From Octopus sinensis (Eukaryota): 64,000 nucleotides of DNA. Positions within the stretch are counted from its first letter, which is position 1; every line of letters begins with the position of its first letter. Shown here in pieces: positions 4,214 through 30,320 of the stretch. The notes under the pieces are model-generated. The model was not told the DNA's origin. It ran no database searches and worked only from the letters and a program-made list of their open reading frames with translations. The position numbers were made by a program, and so were the translations under genes. The stretch spans positions 135,470,001 through 135,534,000 of the forward strand of contig NC_042997.1 in the NCBI RefSeq assembly GCF_006345805.1, in the 5' to 3' direction.

Positions 4214-4975
4214 TTTCCATTTTCCTGTAACTATTAAAACCATACATGCCTTTGGTTTTATAATTAATGGCCAATATAATTTACATCAACACATAGAGAT
4301 AAAGACAATTTCCTGTTTGGGAATCGATCATGTTACCTTCAAATATTGATTTTCGCCTATAAATTGTTGTTCATATTGTTTCTACCCGTCAAATTCCAAC
4401 AGAGAAACTGTCACAGGCATTTAAACAGACTTATAAACCCGTGTGCAAGCAAACACTGAAGAAATGTAACTTCTTGAATGTTCTGAGTACCGTACTTCAA
4501 GTGTGGACGCCTTGTTTCTCCGAACAGGCACATGATACATATATCTTCTTCATATACTTGGCTTCTCAAAATCTTCCTTTTTACTATAGCACTGACACGT
4601 AAAGACATATATTTATACACATCGACACCGCACATGCACACAGTGACGCACAGAGGCACACACAATCACACATGTAAGTATAGTTAAGTAAATTGATTAT
4701 CATATGTTGGTTCTGTTGCTATCTTTGTTGTTTAGTTTCAGATTAATTCTGATTGAAGTTACGTATAATCAGATATGTTTTACCTACGATATCTCCGTTT
4801 ATTTATGACTACATTATCCATCATGGCTTTCCTTTTTTAAAGACTGCAGGAAGGATGTGAGGAATCCTTCAAAGGTATTTCCTGTGACGTACACAAAAAC
4901 AACTAGCATATTTATGTTTAAAATCGCATGACGAATAAATATGCAAATCAACGTTTACATATGTCTGTGAATGTA

Positions 4976-4997
4976 TTTGTGTGTGTGTGTAGTTGTG

Positions 4998-5028
<31 letters not shown>

Positions 5029-5530: not shown

Positions 5531-8500
5531 AATCTGTGGTAAATGCATTATATGAGCTGCTGCAAAATTAGTTTGAATTTGAAACCATATTTTTACAAAA
5601 AAAGTTCCTTAGTCACAACTTTTCTCAGCGAGTTATTCATGTGACCGTGTATATGTATGTGAACGTATGTGCGCATGTATACTTGTTTCAGTACATACAA
5701 TTCTTTGTGTGTTGTGTTTGTATATGTCTATGTATTTACAGGTGTGATGACTTGCGTCGGAAATTGAGAAAATCTTTACAATTCCTAATTGTACTATCTT
5801 CTTTTCAAATATTGATCATATAAAGACAGGTCACTACAAATATTTTATTCTTGACATCACACTTAACAGTATTACATTCGCATGTGCCTCCTTCCTGGTA
5901 AATAAATTCTATGAACCCTCTCCAAATTTTTCCTACTTGAAAGCTTCCTTTCATATGTAGAAAAAAAAATCTGTCAGAATATAAACGATTTATTGCAAAT
6001 GAGATGTTTCAACTACCTCACTCAATCAATGCCAAAATATATAATGTAGAAGACTTAGAAATAGACGCTCTGTGTGTCTGATACCACCGAGTATGTTATA
6101 TCGTACAATTCACCTCCGTGTACATTATACGTACAGCGACGATGTTTTTCTTTAAATTTCAATTCTGATTTCAGTTTTCTGGAACTGTCTGCAGTTTCGA
6201 ATCTCAGTATTATTTCAAGTTAACTAACTTCACTAAATTGATATTTACAGATTCAAGAAACATAGACAAGTCTAACTACACGCTGTTCTAATGTAATTAC
6301 AGTGTTTTAAGAGAAATTCCATTTAAGACAACAAGTAACAGAACATTAAATTTCTTCACCTCGAAAGTTAATAGAACAATCACGCGTTGAGAATATTTCT
6401 TAATGTTTCACCACCAGAACATATTTTTAGCTTTGCTCTTAAACAACTTCGGTGATATAATTATCACGAAGAATTGTAGTTTCTATCTACTTAGAAATCA
6501 TGTGAATCAAGTAGTTCCGAGATTCGACTGCTATAACTACACAACATTCCAAGACGTATATTTTCAAAATTGGTTTCGAGTGAGGTTAGTTACACATTCT
6601 TATCGTTAATAACTTATTCATTCGCACGTGCTATACCATGATAAATAAATTTGTTAATATTATTGTTATTTTTCGGACCCTCATAGATTTAACATACTTC
6701 AGAATAGAATATGTTCCAGCTGTTGTCATTTTGTATATCCAGCACAGTATTGTCCAACACAGCTGCCTTTTTGGCAGGCTATAGTGATGATTTGTGGTGA
6801 TTTGAAGGAAATTTGACAGCATCTTCTCTTCTAGCACATGGAACTCCTATTTGCAGCTGAAGAAATTATCTTACTGGTTAACGGATGACTCGCTAGCCGA
6901 TTTAGGTAAAGTAATTTTTAATCAGTTGATAATGAAAAGTTGTGTGTTATCACGTATAAACATGGAAATAAATCAATAAAAGATTTCCTGAAATATTTTT
7001 ACTGAAATATAATCAATAAAATATGAGGGAAATCGTGATGATCTCAATTATAACAGCTGTAAATGTTAGGTATTTTAGTGTTCTGCGAGAACAAAGGAGG
7101 AATGACAGAATTAGAATGGATAAATATGTTTTATATCTAAGATGAATATCAAACACAAATAATATAGATTTAAATGAACATCTAAGAAAAAGAATACGTA
7201 ACCAATCACCATTATGCCTTCTTACTTTCTTCAGTGTGATAGATCAGCGTAAGAGAATGTCACGGTATACTTTGTTAATCAAAACGATCACATAAGTTAG
7301 CCGAGGCAAGTCATCTTGTAAACTTCTATAGGGTTTCGTTTCGAATTTTAACTATTTTCGTTCTTTTGAATTTATATTTATACAACTTCACATTTCTCTT
7401 CCTTTTTATTACCCTGATGCCTCGTTAAAGTAAATAAATTGTTTACATATTTCAAAAACAAACATGATAAATAAAATTAGACACAAGCTTAATTTTCTTT
7501 CTTCCAAAACAATATTTGGAATTGAAATATTAGTATAAGAAATTGTATAAAGTATAATTTTCAAAATTGATTCATGTACATTAATTGAAACCGGCTCGCA
7601 GATTCAATTTCGCGGAGCTTCACGCAGCTACTGCAACCGATATTAACATTAATGCTGAAGAATAAAATTTCCTATTTGTTCAAAAAGTATGCTTCTTCTT
7701 CTTCTTAAGCCTAGTGAGACAGAAGCGATAAAAGATAAAGGCACAAGTATCGAATAACCAAAAGTTATAGGAACATATACACCAGGCTCTTTATGGTCTC
7801 AGCCAATTTTACTAGTTTCGAATTTTTCATTCACTTTCTTACTTAGTCATGTGATTAATGTATTGAAGAGATGTTTACAGTGTTCTTGGTTAATTTTAAT
7901 CTATTACAGGAAATAACTATATTGATTCAAGAAAAATGTATATAAAGACCACATAACGAGAACAGAATTTAAAACATTTTGGAGCGGAAATTCAATAGTG
8001 AAATACATTTAACGAATTTTAGGTATTTTAGATATCCACCCCTGGTTACTTAATTTCTATATCGTTTCAATCTCTATAGTTCAGTCTAGACTTATAACTA
8101 AGAATCAACATTCCCAACAATAGCATGTGACGAAGATATACAAAACAGCAGCATAATACTTAAATCTTATGAAAATTTCCTTTTAAACACTAGAGAAATG
8201 TTTTGCGATTTTATTAATTGTTATTCTAAACTGAAAGTCTATATTTAGTTCATAAAAAAAGGATCTGAAAACCGGCTTTGTACTGGTTCTTGTGCACTTT
8301 AGTTAACTGTGAAACTACATGAGAATACGGATGGTTGGAAGTGTCTGATAACCTCCGCTTCGAACTTCACATCTTCAGGATGAGAAGGCTGCAGGTTATC
8401 AACAAGCTTATATCAGAGCATTTAATTGAACTACAGACTCGCAACAATCTATAACTTCAGCTAATGTTACAGTTTATGAAATTAGCTATAACAGTAGTTG

Positions 8501-10330
8501 ATATGAGATCATCTGTCACTGGCACCCTGCAACCTATCTGTATTGCACTTTCTAAATCTAACAACAAAACATAAAATCAACGAATACGTCTCTGAATACG
8601 TATAACTAAGAAACAGCATTCCCAACAATGGTATGTGACGAAGATATACATGACAGCAGCAAACTTCAAATGTTTGCATTCCTTAGAAACTGTCCAAACT
8701 CCTCCATGAATGCGGAGTTAAGTATACATAGAACCGTCATATCATGCTACTGGAGGACTTTAAATAGCATAAGAAGATTATTTTAATTCTGATATTATCT
8801 GAAGTCAGAATTGAACGGTAGACTTCTATGAAACCAAGACCAGAAATATCGAATTCCAAATAAACAGATGCGAACCCATGTCATAGGAATATCTGATTCT
8901 CATTTTCCTCACTGAATCATTTATAGCCTACAGCAATAAAATACCTGACTACAGTGCAAAGAAGCTGCTGAAAGACTACCTAATGTCCACATTCAAAAGG
9001 AGCAATGCTAGTCTTTAAAAGAGGAATAACATATTGTGAACTGCTAGCTTTCGTATTTTCAGTGCAGGAATAAAAAAAACGAAAACCTGTGAAAAGATAC
9101 ATTGAGAATATGTGCATTGCCGTAACTGAACTCTTCTATTTAAACAGGTGCATGTCCTATTTGCGTTTAATACAGCACATCAAGCATAAGCGGTCAAATT
9201 TAAATATAGTCATCATCGATTAGTAATAAGCAACTCGAATTTAACAGAGTTTGAACGAGTGGAGTGTTTGTGAATATGTACGGATAGGAATGTATGCGTC
9301 GGAGAAAGAGTGAAGGTAAGATGAGAAAAACAGAGAGAAATAAGATAATCAATTTACCATTCTAAGTTTTTCTAAAGAAATTATTTAAATGATTTTTTTT
9401 TTGGAATGTAACATTACATTAACATTAGACTGACTTTATTAATTTTAAATGTTAACAAAGAAATAATAATTGAGAAAATATACGAAACAAAAGTGAAACT
9501 AGTTTTAATTGCATTTCTTTTTCATTCTCCTTTGTGTAAATTCAGAATACAAAGCGAATTTTTTTTTTAAAAAGTACATTTTATTGATCTTTCGCTGGAA
9601 GTTATAATGAATCACTCGTTAGAAATAATGCCGTCAACACCTGTATGATGAAGACCAGATATCGTATTTCGTATCGTAAATCTTTTTGTCTTGTCTGTAC
9701 TATTGCTGGTTTAAATACCACGCTGTCTACTGGAATGTTGTAGTTTGACGGGGCTTATATTTATAACCTTAGTAAAATGACTCACTGGTAGCTGTCTTGT
9801 ATAGATGCAGGGAGAGCAGTAATGTATATTTGATTTTTCAAGTTTCGAATTACCAACAGCTGATAAGTTTGTCTGGCACTGTTTGAAATCAATCTTCTCT
9901 GACAGTTTAATGCACAAAGTTCTTTGGAAAACACAAGAAAAACATACATTTGCTGCAAAACTGTAATCAACGGAGAAACTTAGTGCTAGATAACCTGATC
10001 AAAGTAATGAATACTGTGCTGTTTGTCAAACAGCAGGGAAGTACAAGAGACAACCAAAGCCTGGCAAGACTCACCGTCTCAAGTAAGTTTTGATACATGT
10101 AATAAATAATTAAAAAATATGTCGTCAGGCTACTCGAATAAATTTAAACCAGAGCTAGATTTGAAGCAAGATATCTCATATAGAAACAGCTATAACAGAT
10201 CTACATAATGAAGTTCACAAGAGCTCTGCGTAGAGTGCGCTGGGACAATAAGATGTATACACCTAAGCAATGACTCAAATACTCTCGAACAATAAATTGA
10301 ATAAACTCCAATAATTAATTGAATATGCTA

Positions 10331-14370: not shown

Positions 14371-17300
14371 TGGACCTCAAAACGAAGATGGCACCAAATT
14401 GTGAAAAGAAAGAGTTAAATCTTCCGCTGAGAGCATGGGCGATTGCTAGTGGCGATCCGCCGAACAACATCATCACTGCCGCGCTAAAAAACAATGGTTT
14501 TCATAAAACCATTGACCAGATAGAGCGGAAGAAAAATGAGTTTACCCGGTCTTACCACACATCAAAACACTGGACAACATAATTGAAAATTATTGTGGCA
14601 AAGCTGATGAGGATGAAGAGGACGAAAAAGAGAAGGAAGCCGGAAAAATCTGTGATCCAGGGGTTCCTCAGGAAAATGGATCACCCACCCCGGTGAACGA
14701 CCAAGAAGTAAAGGATAGGGGAGCCAAGGGAGCAGAAACCGGAAGCCCCCCTGTACCAGTGGTCCTACGAAAAAATGAAAAATTAGAAAAATTAGAAAAG
14801 CAGAAGAAAAAAAGGAAGGACCGAAAACAAAAATAAGGAGGGAAAAGGAAGAGAAGGCAAAACAACCAAAGCTGAAACCCCAACCCACCACACAAACAGC
14901 AGAGAACCCCATGGAGGATCCAATGCCACCCAGTACACTTCAGGAAAGAAGAAATCTGGAAGGCACCGAAGAGCCTGTAAGTTCTACCTGCGGGGCAGAT
15001 GTTGTCATGATGAGGACGGCAAGAACTGCCGGTTCGCCCACCCGACACCCCGCCAGAACTTCAGGTGACTCAAAGAGAAAAACTTTACCGAGGGAACACA
15101 AGAAATGTCTCCCAGGAAAACTTTCAAAAACGAAGTGCGCTCCTCAGCTGTTCTGCGCAACGCAGCAGCTGAGCCAAAGGCTTTTTTATGCATGGCGGAA
15201 ATAATTGTCCGTCAGCTAACCTGGCTACTCCAAGCACAGAGAAGGAACCCTGCCCACCACTATGCAAGACCACCACAGTCAACAGACACGGGATGGCCTC
15301 CCCTAACGCCTGCACAGCCGTCACCCCAATACTTTAACTAAATATTGGTGGCCTGTTGCATCAAAATAGAAACAAAATTTCTTTCGAGAGAGATCTTACT
15401 GCATGCAATCAAGCCCTATGCATAACACTTGTGGAAACTCACCTCAACCCTGATATAGAGGATGCAGAAGTACACATACCAAACTATGCCATACTGCGAA
15501 CAGACAGAAGGGAAAGGAGCCATGGTGGAGTTGCTGTAGACATCCGAGATGACCTCATACCCCAGGTCTTGATGACATACTCAAATTCGGTATGTGACAC
15601 CTTAATTGTATACATAAGACAACATAATATAGTCATATGCAATACATATTGCCCACCGGATGCCCCAAATCATATAGGCAAGTTTGAAGATTGCCTCACA
15701 AGAATTAAAGAAATCCTCATGAATCTGGAACACCACGTGACCATATTTCTTATGATTTTAACTTCCCCAACGTCAAATTGCCCGAAGGTCACATACTCTC
15801 AGGAATGAATCATTGCAAGCAAGTACAGGTGGAGTCCCTGCTCAACCTCACCAATGCCTTATTCATGGAGCAAGTTGTACTCAAGCCAACTAGGGCGAAT
15901 AACATTCTGGATCTCTGCTTCACGAACAATATGGACATCATTCATGATGTGAAAGTGAAACCGACATCAGTTTCGGATCACAACATAATAGAACTGTCTA
16001 TGTTTGGGCCGAAAGTAACCAGAGACATACAGCCTAAAGGAAGCACCCGAAATCTCTCCAATCTGAACTTCCACAAAGCAGATTGGAAATCGATCCTAAA
16101 AGAGATCCTTAGAGAGGACTGGCCGGAATGTCTCTCCACACCAGACATTGACATGAAACTAGAATGTTTCATGTCTTCTGTGCAAGCCGTATGCCAGAAA
16201 TATGTCCCAGAGCACAAGGCCAAAACAAATAGGAGCAAGATTCCAAGAGACAGGAAGATCCTCATGAGACGACGGACGAAGGTTGCAAATCGTCTCAACC
16301 AACATCCCAAAAGTAGCGAAACGTCCCGCCTAAAAACAACACTGATGGAGATCGAAAAAAGGCTGCAACAATCCTATGTGAAGGAGAAAGCAGACAAAGA
16401 AGCCTGGGTTATAAATAACATTAAATCAAACCCAAAGGCCTTCTTTCATTACGCGAAAGAAACAGTCTCAGTGCACTACAAGATAGGACCCCTCCTCCAA
16501 AAGGATGGCTCCCTCACAGACAGTCCAACTATGATCAGTGAGATGCTGAATGACCAGTTCAAAAGTGTCTTTACCACCCTGTTAGAACACAGACAAGTGA
16601 ACGAACCAGTGGACTTCTTTGCCGCCTCACCTATAACCAGCGAGGCGGTTACAATAGAATGTATTGACATTAGCGAAAAAGATGTCCTACTAGCCATAGA
16701 TGAAGTGGACACAAACTCAGCTGCTGGTCCAGACGGTTTCCAAGCCATCCTCCTGAAAGCGTGTAAGCATGCCCTGGCAAAACCCCTCAAGATTCTCTTC
16801 CAGAGCTTTCTTGCGAATGGCAAACTGCCAAGCAAGCTGAAGGAGGGTATAATATGCCCAATACATAAAGGGGGACGTAGAGCAGATGCCACAAAACTAT
16901 AGGCCTATCTCTCTGACTTCACACATCAGCAAAGTCATGGAACAGATAGTCAGAAAGAAACTAATCGCATTCCTTGAGGAGAATAACTTGCTGAGTAATA
17001 CCCAGCATGGTTTTCGACCAGGTAGGAGCTGCCTCACCCAGCTCTTACAGCATTATGACTGGGTGTTGAGGCAGTTTCTCAACAAATCAAATGTGGACGT
17101 AATCTACCTTGATTTTGCAAAAGCTTTTGACAAGGTGGATCATGGTATGATATGCCACAAACTACGTGACCTCGGCATAGCTGGAAAACTTGGAGTGTGG
17201 TTGCATGACTTCCTGAAAGATAGGAGTCAGGCAGTAGTGGTTAATGGAGCCACCTCTATGAACACACAAATAGTGAGCGGTGTTCCACAGAGCGGTGTTC

Positions 17301-18349
17301 CACAGGGCACTGTCTTGGGACCACTGCTTTTTATAGTGGCCCTCTCAAATGCCCGGGTAGCCACTCTGGCCAGCTATGCGGACGATACGAAAGTCTCGCA
17401 GAAAATACAGAACCCCAGCGATATTGCACACCTGCAGCAGGAGTTGGAGTCAATCTACAGATGCCCTGAGGATAATAATATGCAGTTTAATGCTGAAAAA
17501 TTCCAGGCTCTGCGCTACCAGCATCCAAAACTGAATATTAAACTTACAGGATACACCGGTCCACAGGGAATTTCAATCCCAGAGCCTAATTCTGTGGGGG
17601 ACCTGGGTATCGACATGAGTGATGATACCTCTTTCCAAGTGCACATTACCAGGATGGCGACAAAGTGCAGACGACTGGCTGGGTGAAATCCTAAGAACAT
17701 TCAGAACCAGAGATAAGGAAACCATGATGGTCCTCTGGCGGATATTCGTCCTCAGTCGCCTGGATTACTGCTCACAGCTATGGTCACCCACCAGTGTAAA
17801 ATTAACAGCGGACCTTGAAGCAATCCAGAGAATATTCACAAAGAAGATCGTCTATTTGCAACAGCTCAGCTACTGGGAAAGGTTGAAACAGCTAAGACTC
17901 TACTCCCTGGAGAGAAGACGGGAGAGGTATGCAGTAATATATGTCTGGAAGATCCTGGAAGGAATTGTACCAAATTTTGGCATTGTAAGCTACACCAATG
18001 CTAGAACGGGACGACACTGCATAGTGCCAAAGATCCCAGCAATGCCATCACGCTTCAGGACCAGCTTCTGCAACAGCCTGGGTTTCAAGGGCCCACAACT
18101 TTTTAATATTCTCCCAAAGAGTCTGAGGAACTTGCACAAAGTAGATGTAACGGTTTTTAAATCAAAGCTGGACATCTTCCTGTCAAGAGTCCCAGATGAA
18201 CCTACATTACAGCAAGAGGTGCAAATGAGAGTAGCTGTATCAAACTCCATTCTTCACCAAGTGCCACATATTAGACGAGGTTCGTCGTAATAACAGTGTA
18301 GCACAAAACGGCGGTGCATCAGCATGGCCGCAGCTCTGAGCTGAAACTA

Positions 18350-25119: not shown

Positions 25120-26312
25120 TATAATATAAGATAATATAATATAATAAAATAAAATAAAATAATAGAATGTTAAATGTTCATTCTGATTGAACTAGTACTT
25201 TCATGCATTAAATTCTGCAATCTTCAGGTTCATGTAGTAGTGGTGACAGTCATGCTTCACAATTTTTGACTGTAGCGAGATGAATAAAGCTGTGCCTTAA
25301 ATACAGCTGTGTAGGCTCCAGATTGCTAGGTTTTGCAAACTGTATTCTTACCAACCAGTGTGTAGTATCACTCAATTACTTAAGCTGATTGGTTGGTTGA
25401 GCTGATTGGTTTAGGCGTCACGCTTTGTTGAACATGTCAAGAGTCCTGTATCTTAACCCTGGCCGAGGCAGCAATTGTTGGGCTATTTTTAGAAATGTTG
25501 TAAATAGCCTTTGTCAGAGATTTTTATATTTTTATATTTCAATTGTCATCATCATCATTGTCAGCACTTTAATTATTGTTGCTAGTGTTGATGGTGGTGG
25601 CAATAGAACTTTTAACCCTAAATAAGATAATTTTCCTGCTATCTAAGTATTATTATTATTGCTTATTTAGCTTGGGTTCGAATTTATCAATAAAATTCTT
25701 TTCTCTGATTTTCCTCTCGATTTCACTTGAGCTGTGTAATTTGTAGAATGGAAATATTATATATATTTTCCGACCACATGTTGCTAGGTGGTTACTCAAA
25801 GGTATCTGACGGACCTCTGGGTCTCTAATCTGTTGTCGGTGTACACGTGAGCATTCTGATAGTGCATATATTTCTTCACAATTTGGGCATTTGATGCAGT
25901 AAATTAAATTTCTGCTTTTGCAGTTCATATTCGCGTTTGTGAATATTTTCCCGGTTTTTGTGTTTATATATTGGCCGGTATGTATGAATTGGCATGTGCC
26001 ACATCAGCTATCATTGCATTCAGATACAGTGAATGTTTGGTCTTTGTTGCTAAGGTCAAATTTTGCCTTTGTTAGTAATTTTTTCAAGTTTTTAGGCTGT
26101 CTTTTACTATCCGTGATTATGTCTTTTAATTCATTACTTTGAGCAATGATTGGTAGGTTTGCTTTGGAAATGTTGAAGATACTCTGGTGACATGGGTTGT
26201 GTGTCACTATGAATGGTATGACTTCTTCTTGTTTTCCTCTTCCTTGGGTTGTCCTCAGTTGTTGTATGGGTATTTTTATAGCCCGCTGTATGCCATTTTC
26301 TATAAGTAGAGA
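25120..26312 (-). mobile_element. 5'-truncated Penelope-like element (Neptune-type GIY-YIG endonuclease end plus 3' pseudo-LTR)
   Basis: Minus strand: LLIENGIQRAIKIP..IPFIVTHNP..SKRQPKNLKKLLTKAKF, then NCKSRNLIYCIKCPNCEEIY...HRQQIR...NHL..C...FPFYK...RKIREKNFIDKFEPKLN* (25656-25928). HHR downstream. Confidence 0.9.
25188..25232 (-). ncRNA. Minimal type I hammerhead ribozyme in PLE 3' pseudo-LTR
   Basis: Minus strand TGAAC-CTGAAGA-TTGCA gaatttaa TGCAT-GAAA-GTAC-TA-GTTCA: stem I, canonical core, stem II, palindromic stem III AGTACT. Confidence 0.82.
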
Positions 26313-26477
26313 TTTTCAAATCATCGCACTCGCGCCAAATTTATCGGCAGCAAATAAATATAAGCCGCCGATTCCATTACGGAATTAACCAGAAAATTCA
26401 TAATTAATCAATATAGGTCAGATATTGCCGAGGCAGGGACGGAAATGCCTCGTGAAAATATCTGTTCCGACTTGGCT

Positions 26478-26584
26478 ATTTCTTACTGGTGATTCTAAGG
26501 GCCTATGGAAGATTGGCCTGATTTAATTTAATCAGGTTAGTTTACCATTAAACAGTAGATGAAACGGTGCATCGTATAAGAAAT
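26478..26584 (+). ncRNA. Hammerhead motif, array unit 1 (core mutated CTGGTGA)
   Basis: Same fold as units 2-4 but A6->G, probably inactive. Confidence 0.7.
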
Positions 26585-26963
26585 TACAGGGTAAATGTTT
26601 TTTAATTTTCTCCTGGTTTACGGAATTGATGTTATTTTGCGGTTAAAGCTTTGGCTGTTATTTCTAGTGGGTGAATGGCCTATTATGGCCGTTCCTTGAT
26701 TGTGATGTTGAACTTAAAAATGGTCTATGACTATTTAATTTTTTCCCACTAGGCCGCTGGTGGCAAAAAAATTCTACAAAATTTTTTGCCACCCTATATT
26801 GATTAATTATGAATTTTCTGGTTAATTCCGTAATGGAATCGGCGGCTTATATTTATTTGCTGCCGATAAATTTGGCGCGAGTGCGATGATTGAAAATTTT
26901 AGGTCAGATATTGCCGAGGCAGGGACGGAAATGCCTCGTGAAAATATCTGTTCCGACTTGGCT

Positions 26964-27070
26964 ATTTCTTACTGATGATTCTAAGGGCCTATGGAAGATT
27001 GGCCTGATTTAATTTAATCAGGTTAGTTTACCATTTAACAGTAGATGAAACGGTGCATCGTATAAGAAAT
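26964..27070 (+). ncRNA. Type I hammerhead ribozyme, array unit 2
   Basis: Stem I ATTTCTTA/TAAGAAAT; core CTGATGA; stem II TCTA...TAGA enclosing sub-hairpins; GAAA; stem III CGGT-gc-ATCG; GUA cleavage predicted after 27062. Confidence 0.85.
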
Positions 27071-27449
27071 TACAGGGTAAATGTTTTTTAATTTTCTCCT
27101 GTTTACGGAATTGATGTTATTTTGCGGTTAAAGCTTTGGCTGTTATTTCTAGTGGGTGAATGGCCTATTATGGCCGTTCCTTGATTGTGATGTTGAACTT
27201 AAAAATGGTCTATGACTATTTAATTTTTTCCCACTAGGCCGCTGGTGGCAAAAAAATTCTACAAAATTTTTTGCCACCCTATATTGATTAATTATGAATT
27301 TTCTGGTTAATTCCGTAATGGAATCGGCGGCTTATATTTATTTGCTGCCGATAAATTTGGCGCGAGTGCGATGATTTGAAAATTTTAGGTCAGATATTGC
27401 CGAGGCAGGGACGGAAATGCCTCGTGAAAATATCTGTTCCGACTTGGCT

Positions 27450-27556
27450 ATTTCTTACTGATGATTCTAAGGGCCTACGGAAGATTGGCCTGATTTAATT
27501 TAATCAGGTTAGTTTACCATTAAACAGTAGATGAAACGGTGCATCGTATAAGAAAT
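27450..27556 (+). ncRNA. Type I hammerhead ribozyme, array unit 3
   Basis: As unit 2; predicted cleavage after 27548. Confidence 0.85.
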
Positions 27557-27936
27557 TACAGGGTAAATGTTTTTTAATTTTCTCCTGGTTTACGGAATTG
27601 ATGTTATTTTGCGGTTAAAGCTTTGGCTGTTATTTCTAGTGGGTGAATGGCCTATTATGGCCGTTCCTTGATTGTGGTGTTGAACTTAAAAATGGTCTAT
27701 GACTATTTAATTTTTTCCCACTAGGCCGCTGGTGGCAAAACAATTCTACAAAATTTTTTGCCACCCTATATTGATTAATTATGAATTTTCTGGTTAATTC
27801 CGTAATGGAATCGGCGGCTTATATTTATTTGCTGCCGATAAATTTGGCGCGAGTGTGATGATTTGAAAATTTTAGGTCAGATATTGCCGAGGCAGGGACG
27901 GAAATGCCTCGTGAAAATATCTGTTCCGACTTGGCT

Positions 27937-28043
27937 ATTTCTTACTGATGATTCTAAGGGCCTATGGAAGATTGGCCTGATTTAATTTAATCAGGTTAGT
28001 TTACCATTAAACAGTAGATGAAACGGTGCATCGTATAAGAAAT
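27937..28043 (+). ncRNA. Type I hammerhead ribozyme, array unit 4
   Basis: As unit 2; predicted cleavage after 28035. Confidence 0.85.
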
Positions 28044-28166
28044 TACAGGGTAAATGTTTTTTAATTTTCTCCTGGTTTACGGAATTGATGTTATTTTGCG
28101 GTTAAAGCTTTGGCTGTTATTTCTAGTGGGTGAATGGCCTATTATGGCCGTTCCTTGATTGTGATA

Positions 28167-28199
<33 letters not shown>

Positions 28200-28386
28200 C
28201 ATTATATATATATATACATATATATATACATATATATACATATATATATGTACATATTATATATATATATTATATATATATATATATTATATATATATAT
28301 ATATACAATTACAGCGTGGAAGGTGTTTATAAGCCATTTAAGAAACACACAAAAGCCGTTCGATTCACTTCAACATTTAAGTTTAA

Positions 28387-28436
28387 TTTGTCAAAATATT
28401 TTCTTCGCTAAAATCGGCGACCTGTTCACTGACAAA
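28387..28436 (-). ncRNA. Hammerhead-like motif with G3-C8 swapped core (GUGAACA), left arm
   Basis: Minus strand TTTGTCA-GTGAACA-G-GTCGC cgatttta GCGAA-GAAA-ATAT-TT-TGACAAA. Confidence 0.65.
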
Positions 28437-28454
28437 GTCCGATGCAGCACGGAC

Positions 28455-28504
28455 TTTGTCAGTGAACCGGTCGCGGATTTTAGCGACGAAAATATTTTGA
28501 CAAA
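28455..28504 (+). ncRNA. Hammerhead-like motif with G3-C8 swapped core (GUGAACC), right arm
   Basis: TTTGTCA-GTGAACC-G-GTCGC ggatttta GCGAC-GAAA-ATAT-TT-TGACAAA. Confidence 0.6.
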
Positions 28505-29184
28505 TTAAACTTAAATGTTGAAGTGAATCGAACGGCTTTTGTGTGTTTCTTAAATGGCTTATAAACACCTTCCACGCTGCAATTGTTTTCGTTTCAGCAC
28601 ACGATCTCAGATCAAATTACTTGCTATGCGAGTACATCTCCGTATATATATATATATATATATATATATGAAGAGCGAGAAAGAGTGAGACAGAGAGGCA
28701 CAAAGAGAGCAAGTTATAGTAGCCATTCCTCTGACTTCTTGCTCACTTCTGCATACACCAGTGACCATCCCATATCGTCTATATTTTTGCATGTGTAGCA
28801 CTAGGGACTACACATCTTCGAAGCATTTTTCAGTTTCTGCCGGAGTAGGAAACTGAGGTTTCCTCTCCTTGCGAGAAACACATTATTTATAAAAAAAATT
28901 ATTCCTCTTTCGGAGTATTTTCCCTCCTCACTAAGGCGCATAATACCTGGTTTCATAATGTCACTCTTGTATTTCAGAGCCTTAATTTTATTAGTCATCC
29001 ACTGAAAAAATAGCCCAATTGCTAACGACTTTAGAAAAGGAAGTAGCTTTGTTATTATTGCTGCTCCTGCTATTGTTGGTGGTGATGGTGGTGTCGTTGT
29101 CGTCGTCGCTGTTCTTTTCAATCGTATTGTTCATGTTACTTTCTTTGTTTTCGATTTTGTTCATCAATGTTGTTGATACATTTG

Positions 29185-30051
29185 CTGGGATCTTTTCTGT
29201 TTGATGGACGGAATTTTCTAGTTAACTAAACAATTTGAAACTTCGTATACTGGTAGAATGTGTCAAAAGAAAACATTATTGTAAGCAAAATTGAAAACAA
29301 AATTGTAATTCGTAACTTTAACGCAGTTTAATTCTACGAATTTTAACCAATGAAATTGCAGCATTCGAGCTCAAATTATTTGTTGCGTCTAAAAACTCAC
29401 ACGCACACGTCTTATTCATCCTTTCTCTCTCTTCTGTCTACATGTGCTAGAAATAACTGCTATATCTCTTAAATCGATGAATTTCGTCGCCCAATAAAAA
29501 TATTAACGATATATTTTGAATATTTCCTTAATTTTTTTTACCGAAAAGGCTTCTCCCATGGTTTTGAAGGGCCAGAAACAACAAAAACAAAACAATAATA
29601 TGCCTAAATCGGTCTAGAGTTTGCGCGTGGAGTGTGATTCGTATTATTTTTATTTTTTATTTTATCTAGTTTCAGCTCACGAGCTTTGGCCATTCTGGGG
29701 CACCGCCATTTGTAAAAATTTGCGAAATATTTTTTCATAAAAGGATGCCCCAGCTTGTCGGAAGCTGTGATATAAGTTGTGAAAAAAATCCTCGACACCA
29801 GTGCGTAATTGGTACTTAATTTATCGACCCCGAAACGATGAAACATTGACCCCCCCTTCTAGTTTATTTACTTTTTGTGTAAATCTGTTACGGCATGGGG
29901 CAACTCACGAATGTGTATGTATGCTTGTGTGCGTATGTGTGTGCATGTATATGTCCGTTTGTATGTGTGTGTACTCTTATATATTAATTACTATGTGCTT
30001 GTGCAAATGTATATGCATGTGTTTTAGAGAGAGAGAGAGAGAGAGAGAGTG

Positions 30052-30093
<42 letters not shown>

Positions 30094-30320
30094 GTGCGTC
30101 TGCTATATTTCTTTATCAATATCGATAACGCAGCAATGCTGGGGTTTTATTGGTTAAAATTCGTAAAATTAAACTACGTTTAAGTTATAAATTACAATTT
30201 TGTTTTCAATTTTGTTTACAATAATGTTTTTGTTTTTTTTGACACATTCTACCAGTATACGAAGTTTCAAATTTTTTAGTTAACTAGAAAATTCCGTCCA
30301 TCAAACAGAAAAGATCCCAG
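29185..30320. mobile_element. Non-autonomous DNA transposon with ~170-bp terminal inverted repeats
   Basis: CTGGGATCTTTTCTGTTTGATGGACGGAATTTTCTAGTTAACT... mirrored at 30147-30320. Possible 3-bp TSD TTG. No ORF. Confidence 0.88.
29644..29708 (-). mobile_element. Tail-only copy of the CR1/L2-group LINE 3' end
   Basis: Reverse complement TGGCGGTGCCCCAGAATGGCCAAAGCTCGTGAGCTGAAACTAGA + (TAAAA)n, matches 18310-18351. Confidence 0.8.

Follow-up and report, generated by a model that had tools for sequence, protein, structure and literature searches.

The terminal repeat of an abundant Penelope-like element (PLE) of Octopus sinensis, called here family A, plausibly carries a minimal type I hammerhead whose core pairs G3 with C8. 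Intact copies would self-cleave slowly, either as dimers or with the help of a protein; the copy found in the window, i.e. the whole stretch of 64,000 nucleotides that was analysed, would be inert. A probability of about 0.6 is attributed to this reading, and measurable cleavage by the intact motif is likewise probable. G3-C8 is the natural majority state of the family-A core, and the repeat is the pLTR end, together with the ORF start, of a PLE encoding RT and GIY-YIG domains.

The element and its insertion in the window

A DNA search of the 2.7-Gb Octopus genome with the repeat returned 735 first-look candidates, and a 23-base motif from its 3' part occurs 9,080 times in the genome. Upstream continuation into a shared 3' region was found at 10 of 30 loci. 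An ORF with RT-thumb and GIY-YIG sequences resides in sense orientation at L005, L012, L014, L023 and L026, and inverted at L009 and L010; in several loci its GIY-YIG end lies about 1 kb ahead of the motif. The 3' repeat is about 1 kb long. Near-full ORFs were identified at L087-L090 (open frames of 793-1,042 codons), and include RT motifs, a CX3CxxC linker and a CCHH endonuclease. At L089 the repeat continues into the ORF, and the start codon assigned to the window copy (Table 1) follows from this continuity; the motif is located 56 nt upstream of the presumed ORF start. Among 38 aligned homologues, Pfam recognized RVT_1 in seven and GIY-YIG in three, and in the PDB the homologue profile found only two weak RT matches. 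The family-A protein alone gave no significant Pfam or PDB match, and no relatives were found in viral and prokaryote collections. Family A displays the features of EN+ PLEs, namely a single ORF in which RT is followed by GIY-YIG with CCHH, a pLTR extending over the ORF start, a tail and an inverted truncated copy.

An unbiased sample of 76 copies was picked by the 3' motif alone. The 3' end is short in 35 of them and about 55 nt longer in 41, and an inverted partner was flagged, by a crude test, in 34. The commonest form of family A is a pLTR end fragment of about 200 nt with tail, and copies are flanked by a (TA)n target. Many copies have their start some 20 nt ahead of G3, and a G is often added there (L088 6978-7002, plus strand; window 28441-28449). 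Ten of 27 5' ends read GAG, and 9 read TCAG or TTAG, a hint that the G may be cap-derived. In the longer repeat an acceptor-like or initiator-like sequence is found where many copies begin; the acceptor-like sequence lies just upstream of the motif, and no splice joint was seen in the contigs of four presumed RNA runs, in which repeats are skipped. Pieces of a different element with RT and GIY-YIG adjoin a family-A copy at L037 (~6200-9000, minus strand).

The first-pass annotation had described in the window a hairpin with 137-bp arms, each carrying a hammerhead-like motif. The hairpin is present, with four mismatches (Table 1), and the 7-bp stem I, the 5-bp stem II and the extra G before stem II were located in both arms. 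Read 5' to 3' outward from the centre, each arm consists of stem I, GUGAACN, the extra G, stem II, GAA, AAUAUU and U17. The cores are, as had been reported, GUGAACA in the left arm (minus strand) and GUGAACC in the right arm; G3 and C8 are found in both, C9 in the right arm only. The palindromic stem III had to be redrawn: the palindrome exists, but in the hammerhead register the helix is AAUAUU only, and the 10-nt palindrome is made up of AAUAUU plus A13, A14, U17 and U1.1. Each arm bears a different single lesion, as had been noted, loss of the G10.1-C11.1 pair on the left and A9C on the right.

Table 1. Features of the hairpin locus (window positions)
Feature	Positions	Strand	Detail or basis
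(TA)n microsatellite, left insertion flank	28164..28305	.	sequence
Inverted arms of the hairpin	28305..28441 / 28450..28586		137 nt, 97% complementary
Family-A PLE pLTR fragment, inverted, 5'-truncated, short 3' end without tail	28305..28441	-	
Hammerhead motif, left arm	28387..28436	-	G3 28429, C8 28424, A9 unaltered; G10.1-C11.1 broken by A in place of C11.1 (28404)
pLTR end fragment with tail, ~200 nt	28442..28643	+	
Hammerhead motif, right arm	28455..28504	+	G3 28462, C8 28467, A9C lesion 28468, extra G 28469; stem I 28455-28461/28498-28504; stem II (5 bp) 28470-28474/28483-28487; G12 28488, U17 28497; predicted cut between 28497/28498
Element ORF, first 30 codons, inferred start ATG	28554..28643	+	L089 sequence runs on into RT ORF
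Tail extension, ~55 nt, on one arm only	28587..28643	+	arm comparison
(TA)n microsatellite, right insertion flank	28643..28669	.	sequence

The fold of the right-arm motif has a z score of -3.08 (1 of 200 shuffles as good), that of the damaged left-arm motif a z score of -1.59; the motif score of an intact copy was matched in none of 200 shuffles of its 1.3-kb region. In read-through RNA of either strand the arms are predicted to pair with each other, as a 137-bp duplex, with a probability >0.99, and the window motif could therefore not fold. Because of this duplex, and of the core lesion in each arm, the window copy is predicted to be inactive, and the locus is likely a dead insertion. The hairpin is a routine by-product of insertion, since pLTR, tail and inverted truncated copy match the anatomy of PLEs (PMC8557442; PMC11167929); this, and the assignment of the repeat to a PLE pLTR end, are points beyond the first-pass annotation. 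Being on opposite strands, the two arms are ruled out as a ribozyme dimer within one RNA. A search of Rfam gave no hammerhead match at E up to 10, and 24 weak matches, all under the gathering score; the miRNA precursor reading was rejected, all miRNA-type hairpin matches being below threshold. No host gene was identified at the insertion site, where only repeat-like ORFs are listed.

Other repeats are found nearby. A 487-bp tandem repeat (3.6 copies, 99% identity) covers window positions 26312-28165; at the left end of the array lies a 106-nt copy in inverted orientation, each unit contains a 35-nt palindrome, and a related inverted repeat spans positions 29185-30320. Frameshifted ORF pieces at 15709-18290 (plus strand) belong, presumably, to a LINE-type reverse transcriptase, to which they were assigned from motifs.

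Core state in family A and in its relatives

From the two differently lesioned arms a lesion-free consensus had been predicted, and GUGAACA was indeed found in 28 of the 30 best-matching loci, the other two being L012 and the copy in the window. The genome-wide check of core conservation had the same outcome. Keeping the stems fixed and the core free, 4,129 genomic matches were found, against none in the control, and reversed-pattern controls also gave none genome-wide. In the best 100 of the 4,129, counted by eye, G3 occurs in 99, C8 in 98 and both in 97, the latter having, at positions 3 and 8, the bases of GUGANCA rather than of the consensus CUGANGA; position 7, left free, is variable in 7 of the 100 matches listed, and loop II is of at least five types. 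Similarly, among 100 matches listed for an older loop type, 89 have G3 and 87 C8.

The whole core is kept in 63 copies of the unbiased sample. All 63 have G3; C8 is found in 58, G8 in 4 and U8 in one. U4 is found in 61, G5 in 60, A6 and A9 in 63, and the extra nucleotide after A9 is G in 59. Family A has U4 G5 A6, A9, G12 A13 A14 and A15.1-U16.1, stems I and II with G10.1-C11.1, and the short palindromic helix III AAUAUU; the window departs from this pattern at C9 in the right arm and at G10.1-C11.1 in the left. U17 is present in all 69 sampled copies that cover the site; genome-wide, another base is found in just 37 copies, 23 of which have C17. With G3 fixed, 5,921 of 6,298 genomic matches carry C8, 206 G8, and 171 U8 or A8 together. 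A C3-G8 subfamily inside family A was looked for and not found, none of 19 double variants having C3-G8 (three of the 19 represent unrelated sequence). Subfamilies differ in loop II and in the 3' flank, but not in the core. In four public runs no variant of 3% or more was found in the 5' strand of stem I, in the core or in the 5' strand of stem II, in contigs that drop rare variants; the sole common stem variant keeps a G.U pair, and several flank positions vary by 50-60%. The four runs bear four organism labels and have near-identical variant profiles, so that they add little depth.

The number of G3.G8 copies, larger than that of U8 and A8 copies combined, suggests that an unpaired lineage probably spread too. 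These copies are more diverged (8.3% vs 3.8%). In a DNA tree built from 75 copies resolution is poor; G3.G8 copies are scattered, and the tree gives no order of G3.G8 and G3-C8. The absence of core variation in this tree results from the way its copies were selected, and carries no weight.

The sister family B, found in the same genome, has 55% protein identity to family A. The product of its ORF matches a protein labelled Octopus vulgaris at 98.5% identity; the first ~149 residues of an annotated Octopus vulgaris protein (P0114) are 98% identical to the same ORF, and this start may be an exonised fragment or an artefact of the gene model. The family-B motif occupies the same place in the 3' repeat, and 2,907 matches were found (as an example, L091 ~5862-5912, plus strand). 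Among the best 100 of these, C3 is found in 95 and G8 in 100; position 9 is C in 92 and A in 7, several of the A9 motifs being fully canonical CUGAUGA. The A9 minority has another loop II. C17 is found in three of eight family-B copies. Fifteen metagenome loci with related ORFs were also examined, five of the 15 having little or no flank. The motif adjoins the ORF in five, with C3-G8 at L107 and L108 and U3-A8 at L110, L112 and L113; L110 carries C9 together with U3-A8. The L107 hammerhead (4964-5017, plus strand) has U15.1-A16.1 in place of A-U. No motif was found in the 54-883 nt of flank behind the ORF at L109, L111, L114, L115 and L116. Counted by family, relatives of family A have C3-G8 in three cases and U3-A8 in three, and a Watson-Crick 3-8 pair is retained in all seven families with a motif. 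A canonical C3-G8 hammerhead with an extra A and a longer helix III was noticed in another element (L093 ~7350-7402, minus strand).

The covariation alignment comprises seven rows from five families; L112 and L113 were omitted, as MAFFT misaligned them, and stems I and III of L108 are out of register. Pairs form in 90.5% of its cells, against 25-46% in slid controls. Eleven of 12 pairs exhibit double changes, a value reached in 0 of 500 shuffles, which is not to be taken as a probability, the seven rows being related. The 3-8 pair is CG in four rows, GC in two and UA in one. In a FastTree phylogeny of 25 proteins, families A and B are sister groups (SH 97) nested in a clade whose motifs have C-G or U-A, and G3-C8 is therefore most simply derived. 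Copy counts and covariation with homologous elements both favour a natural G3-C8 hammerhead family, as the first-pass annotation had proposed, and the family-A motif is very probably a true hammerhead homologue.

Known hammerheads and related elements

Family A recalls the minimal type I hammerheads of metazoan PLE pLTRs (PMC4209133; Cervera and de la Pena 2014) in the pLTR location, the extra nucleotide that separates position 9 from 10.1, the G10.1-C11.1 pair, the short palindromic helix III, the NUH site, and the thousands of dispersed truncated copies, with pairs on opposite strands. In contrast, the extra nucleotide is G in family A and H in the consensus of PMC4209133, and stem I is longer in family A (7 bp). 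Among the 56 motifs of Fig. S3 in that paper, 53 have C3-G8, two U3-A8, one U3.G8 and none the G3-C8 of family A. There is no octopus entry among these motifs, and the descriptors of that study could not have found G3-C8. The claim that standard searches would miss the family fits the descriptors used, which either required C3-G8 or U3-A8 (PMC4209133) or barred core changes (PMC3088659).

Natural covariation of the 3-8 pair is in print as U3-A8 (PMC3088659; PMC4209133), a compensatory replacement comparable to G3-C8 that occurs in three relatives as well. Yet, U3-A8 keeps a pyrimidine at position 3 and a purine at position 8, whereas two transversions are required for G3-C8, in which the general-acid residue becomes a pyrimidine. 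In the full-text literature covered, G3-C8 was found only as an engineered mutant; Lunse et al. 2017, Przybilski and Hammann 2007 and some supplements fall outside this coverage, and may bear on the claim.

The Anolis Poseidon element PAc (PMC11167929) resembles family A in having a hammerhead near the ORF start, AT-rich targets, and a tail between two reverse-transcription starts. G3-C8 was engineered in PAc (C3G/G8C), where it partly cleaves with protein help, and is the natural majority in family A. The presumed start codon is downstream of the motif in family A, inside it in PAc, and the tail measures about 55 nt in the former vs 30-40 in the latter. EN+ PLEs of the Neptune/Nematis type (PMC8557442) share with family A an RT followed by a C-terminal GIY-YIG with CCHH, a CX3CxxC linker (CX2-5CxxC class), a microsatellite bias and an inverted truncated partner, a likeness by features; for family A, no splice joint of a pLTR intron was seen in the run contigs covered. 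Non-LTR retrozymes, which derive from PLE pLTRs, also have a type I hammerhead (10.64898/2026.07.22.740005). They are defined by head-to-tail tandem units, each with a hammerhead and without a coding link, whereas family-A copies are dispersed or head-to-head and the longer ones are contiguous with the ORF, which sets family A outside this group.

With the G3-C8 family, a third 3-8 pair would be added to those of natural hammerhead cores. In a single genome, descriptors with a fixed core overlook about 6,000 motifs, and calls of 'no hammerhead' in PLEs therefore need relaxed cores. One clade provides a natural series (C3-G8, U3-A8, G3-C8, G3.G8, C9, U15.1-A16.1) suited to asking whether it is cleavage, or the fold alone, for which the motifs are retained. 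The chemistry itself is unsurprising, because the C3G/G8C double mutant works in vitro.

Cleavage and competing readings

In the model proposed, G3 and C8 would form the tertiary pair placing the 2'-OH of residue 8, and the AAUAUU palindrome would complete stem III between two RNAs. U17 would permit G3, because a C17 would pair with G3, and the intact motif would cleave slowly after U17. Most genomic copies would be reverse transcripts of uncut RNA, with reverse transcription starting at two internal sites and using nicked AT-rich DNA for priming, and template switching would give rise to the inverted arm. Published data provide the background. C3 pairs with G8 in the active fold, and C3G/G8C partly restores cleavage in a protein-dependent PLE hammerhead (PMC11167929); in a saturation screen, rescue within the CUGA turn came from the same double change alone (PMC9901934). 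PLE hammerheads of the minimal kind cleave weakly and as dimers (PMC4209133), and a G3-C8 variant was reported, data not shown, to have lower activity when residue 17 is C rather than G (PMC3884650).

It is possible, though we do not favour it, that the motif derives from a hammerhead and has no useful cleavage, its fold being kept for binding or folding in an RNA-protein particle, or drifting, and G3-C8 having been fixed in a master lineage partly by luck. The 63 copies with a whole core, the part that cleavage would remove, point to uncut RNA as the source of most copies. A cleavage footprint was sought in the genomic 5' ends, which show no clear peak at the predicted cut: one of the 76 unbiased copies starts there, and so do 16 of 100 truncated copies listed (5 explained by stem-I homology), vs about 10 four bases upstream. 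The excess and the older age of G3.G8 copies, and the amplification of family B despite C9, are in line with little cleavage. The same holds for predicted misfolds, since G3.U17 pairing (with a monomer probability of 0.66) and the longer register of the 10-nt palindrome (-3.8 kcal/mol, vs -0.2 for the 6-nt active register) would compete with the active fold. According to PMC11167929, PLE insertion in vitro proceeded unimpaired with mutant hammerheads, and RNA-seq of the anole element was without cut ends. Against this, two changes among 11 core positions would hit paired sites and restore the pair with a prior of only about 0.006 (a post hoc figure), a Watson-Crick 3-8 pair recurs in every family with a motif, and the core is constant where loop II and 3' flank change. 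Slow cleavage by intact G3-C8 copies is the reading that we prefer; the extra G, at a place where the consensus has H, and the five related ORFs with no motif found in their flank speak against it. A bolder version of the preferred reading is tentative and rather unlikely: an active natural hammerhead with a cytidine at the general-acid position, in a genome preserving the steps of the swap, i.e. the C3-G8 sister, the older G3.G8, and the compensated G3-C8 majority, enabled by U17. If true, the genome would retain the traces of a fitness valley being crossed by the catalytic core of a ribozyme, within a clade that uses three different 3-8 pairs.

We give next to no credit to a chance likeness in an AT-rich repeat or MITE. 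Rfam lacks a hammerhead match, and the relaxed scanner attains the scores of homologues in up to 12 of 200 shuffles; yet the motif has the same position in homologues, with canonical CUGANGA in L107, L108 and the family-B minority, stems covary across the aligned motifs, and the repeat is contiguous with the RT ORF. Very improbable, too, is a function of the window hairpin itself, either as an antisense lock on the ribozyme or as a source of dsRNA for editing or small RNAs. The near-certain pairing of the arms in read-through RNA would suit it, as would the A>G and T>C differences that three out of four runs, presumed to be RNA, display. Inverted partners, however, are routine in the unbiased sample and described for PLEs (PMC8557442), the arms carry independent lesions, and only repeat-like ORFs accompany the site.

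The A>G and T>C differences reside at L088, positions 7073, 7092, 7112 and 7131, and are not listed in the four runs used for core variants. They reach up to 20% of depth, and look like A-to-I editing of fold-back transcripts.
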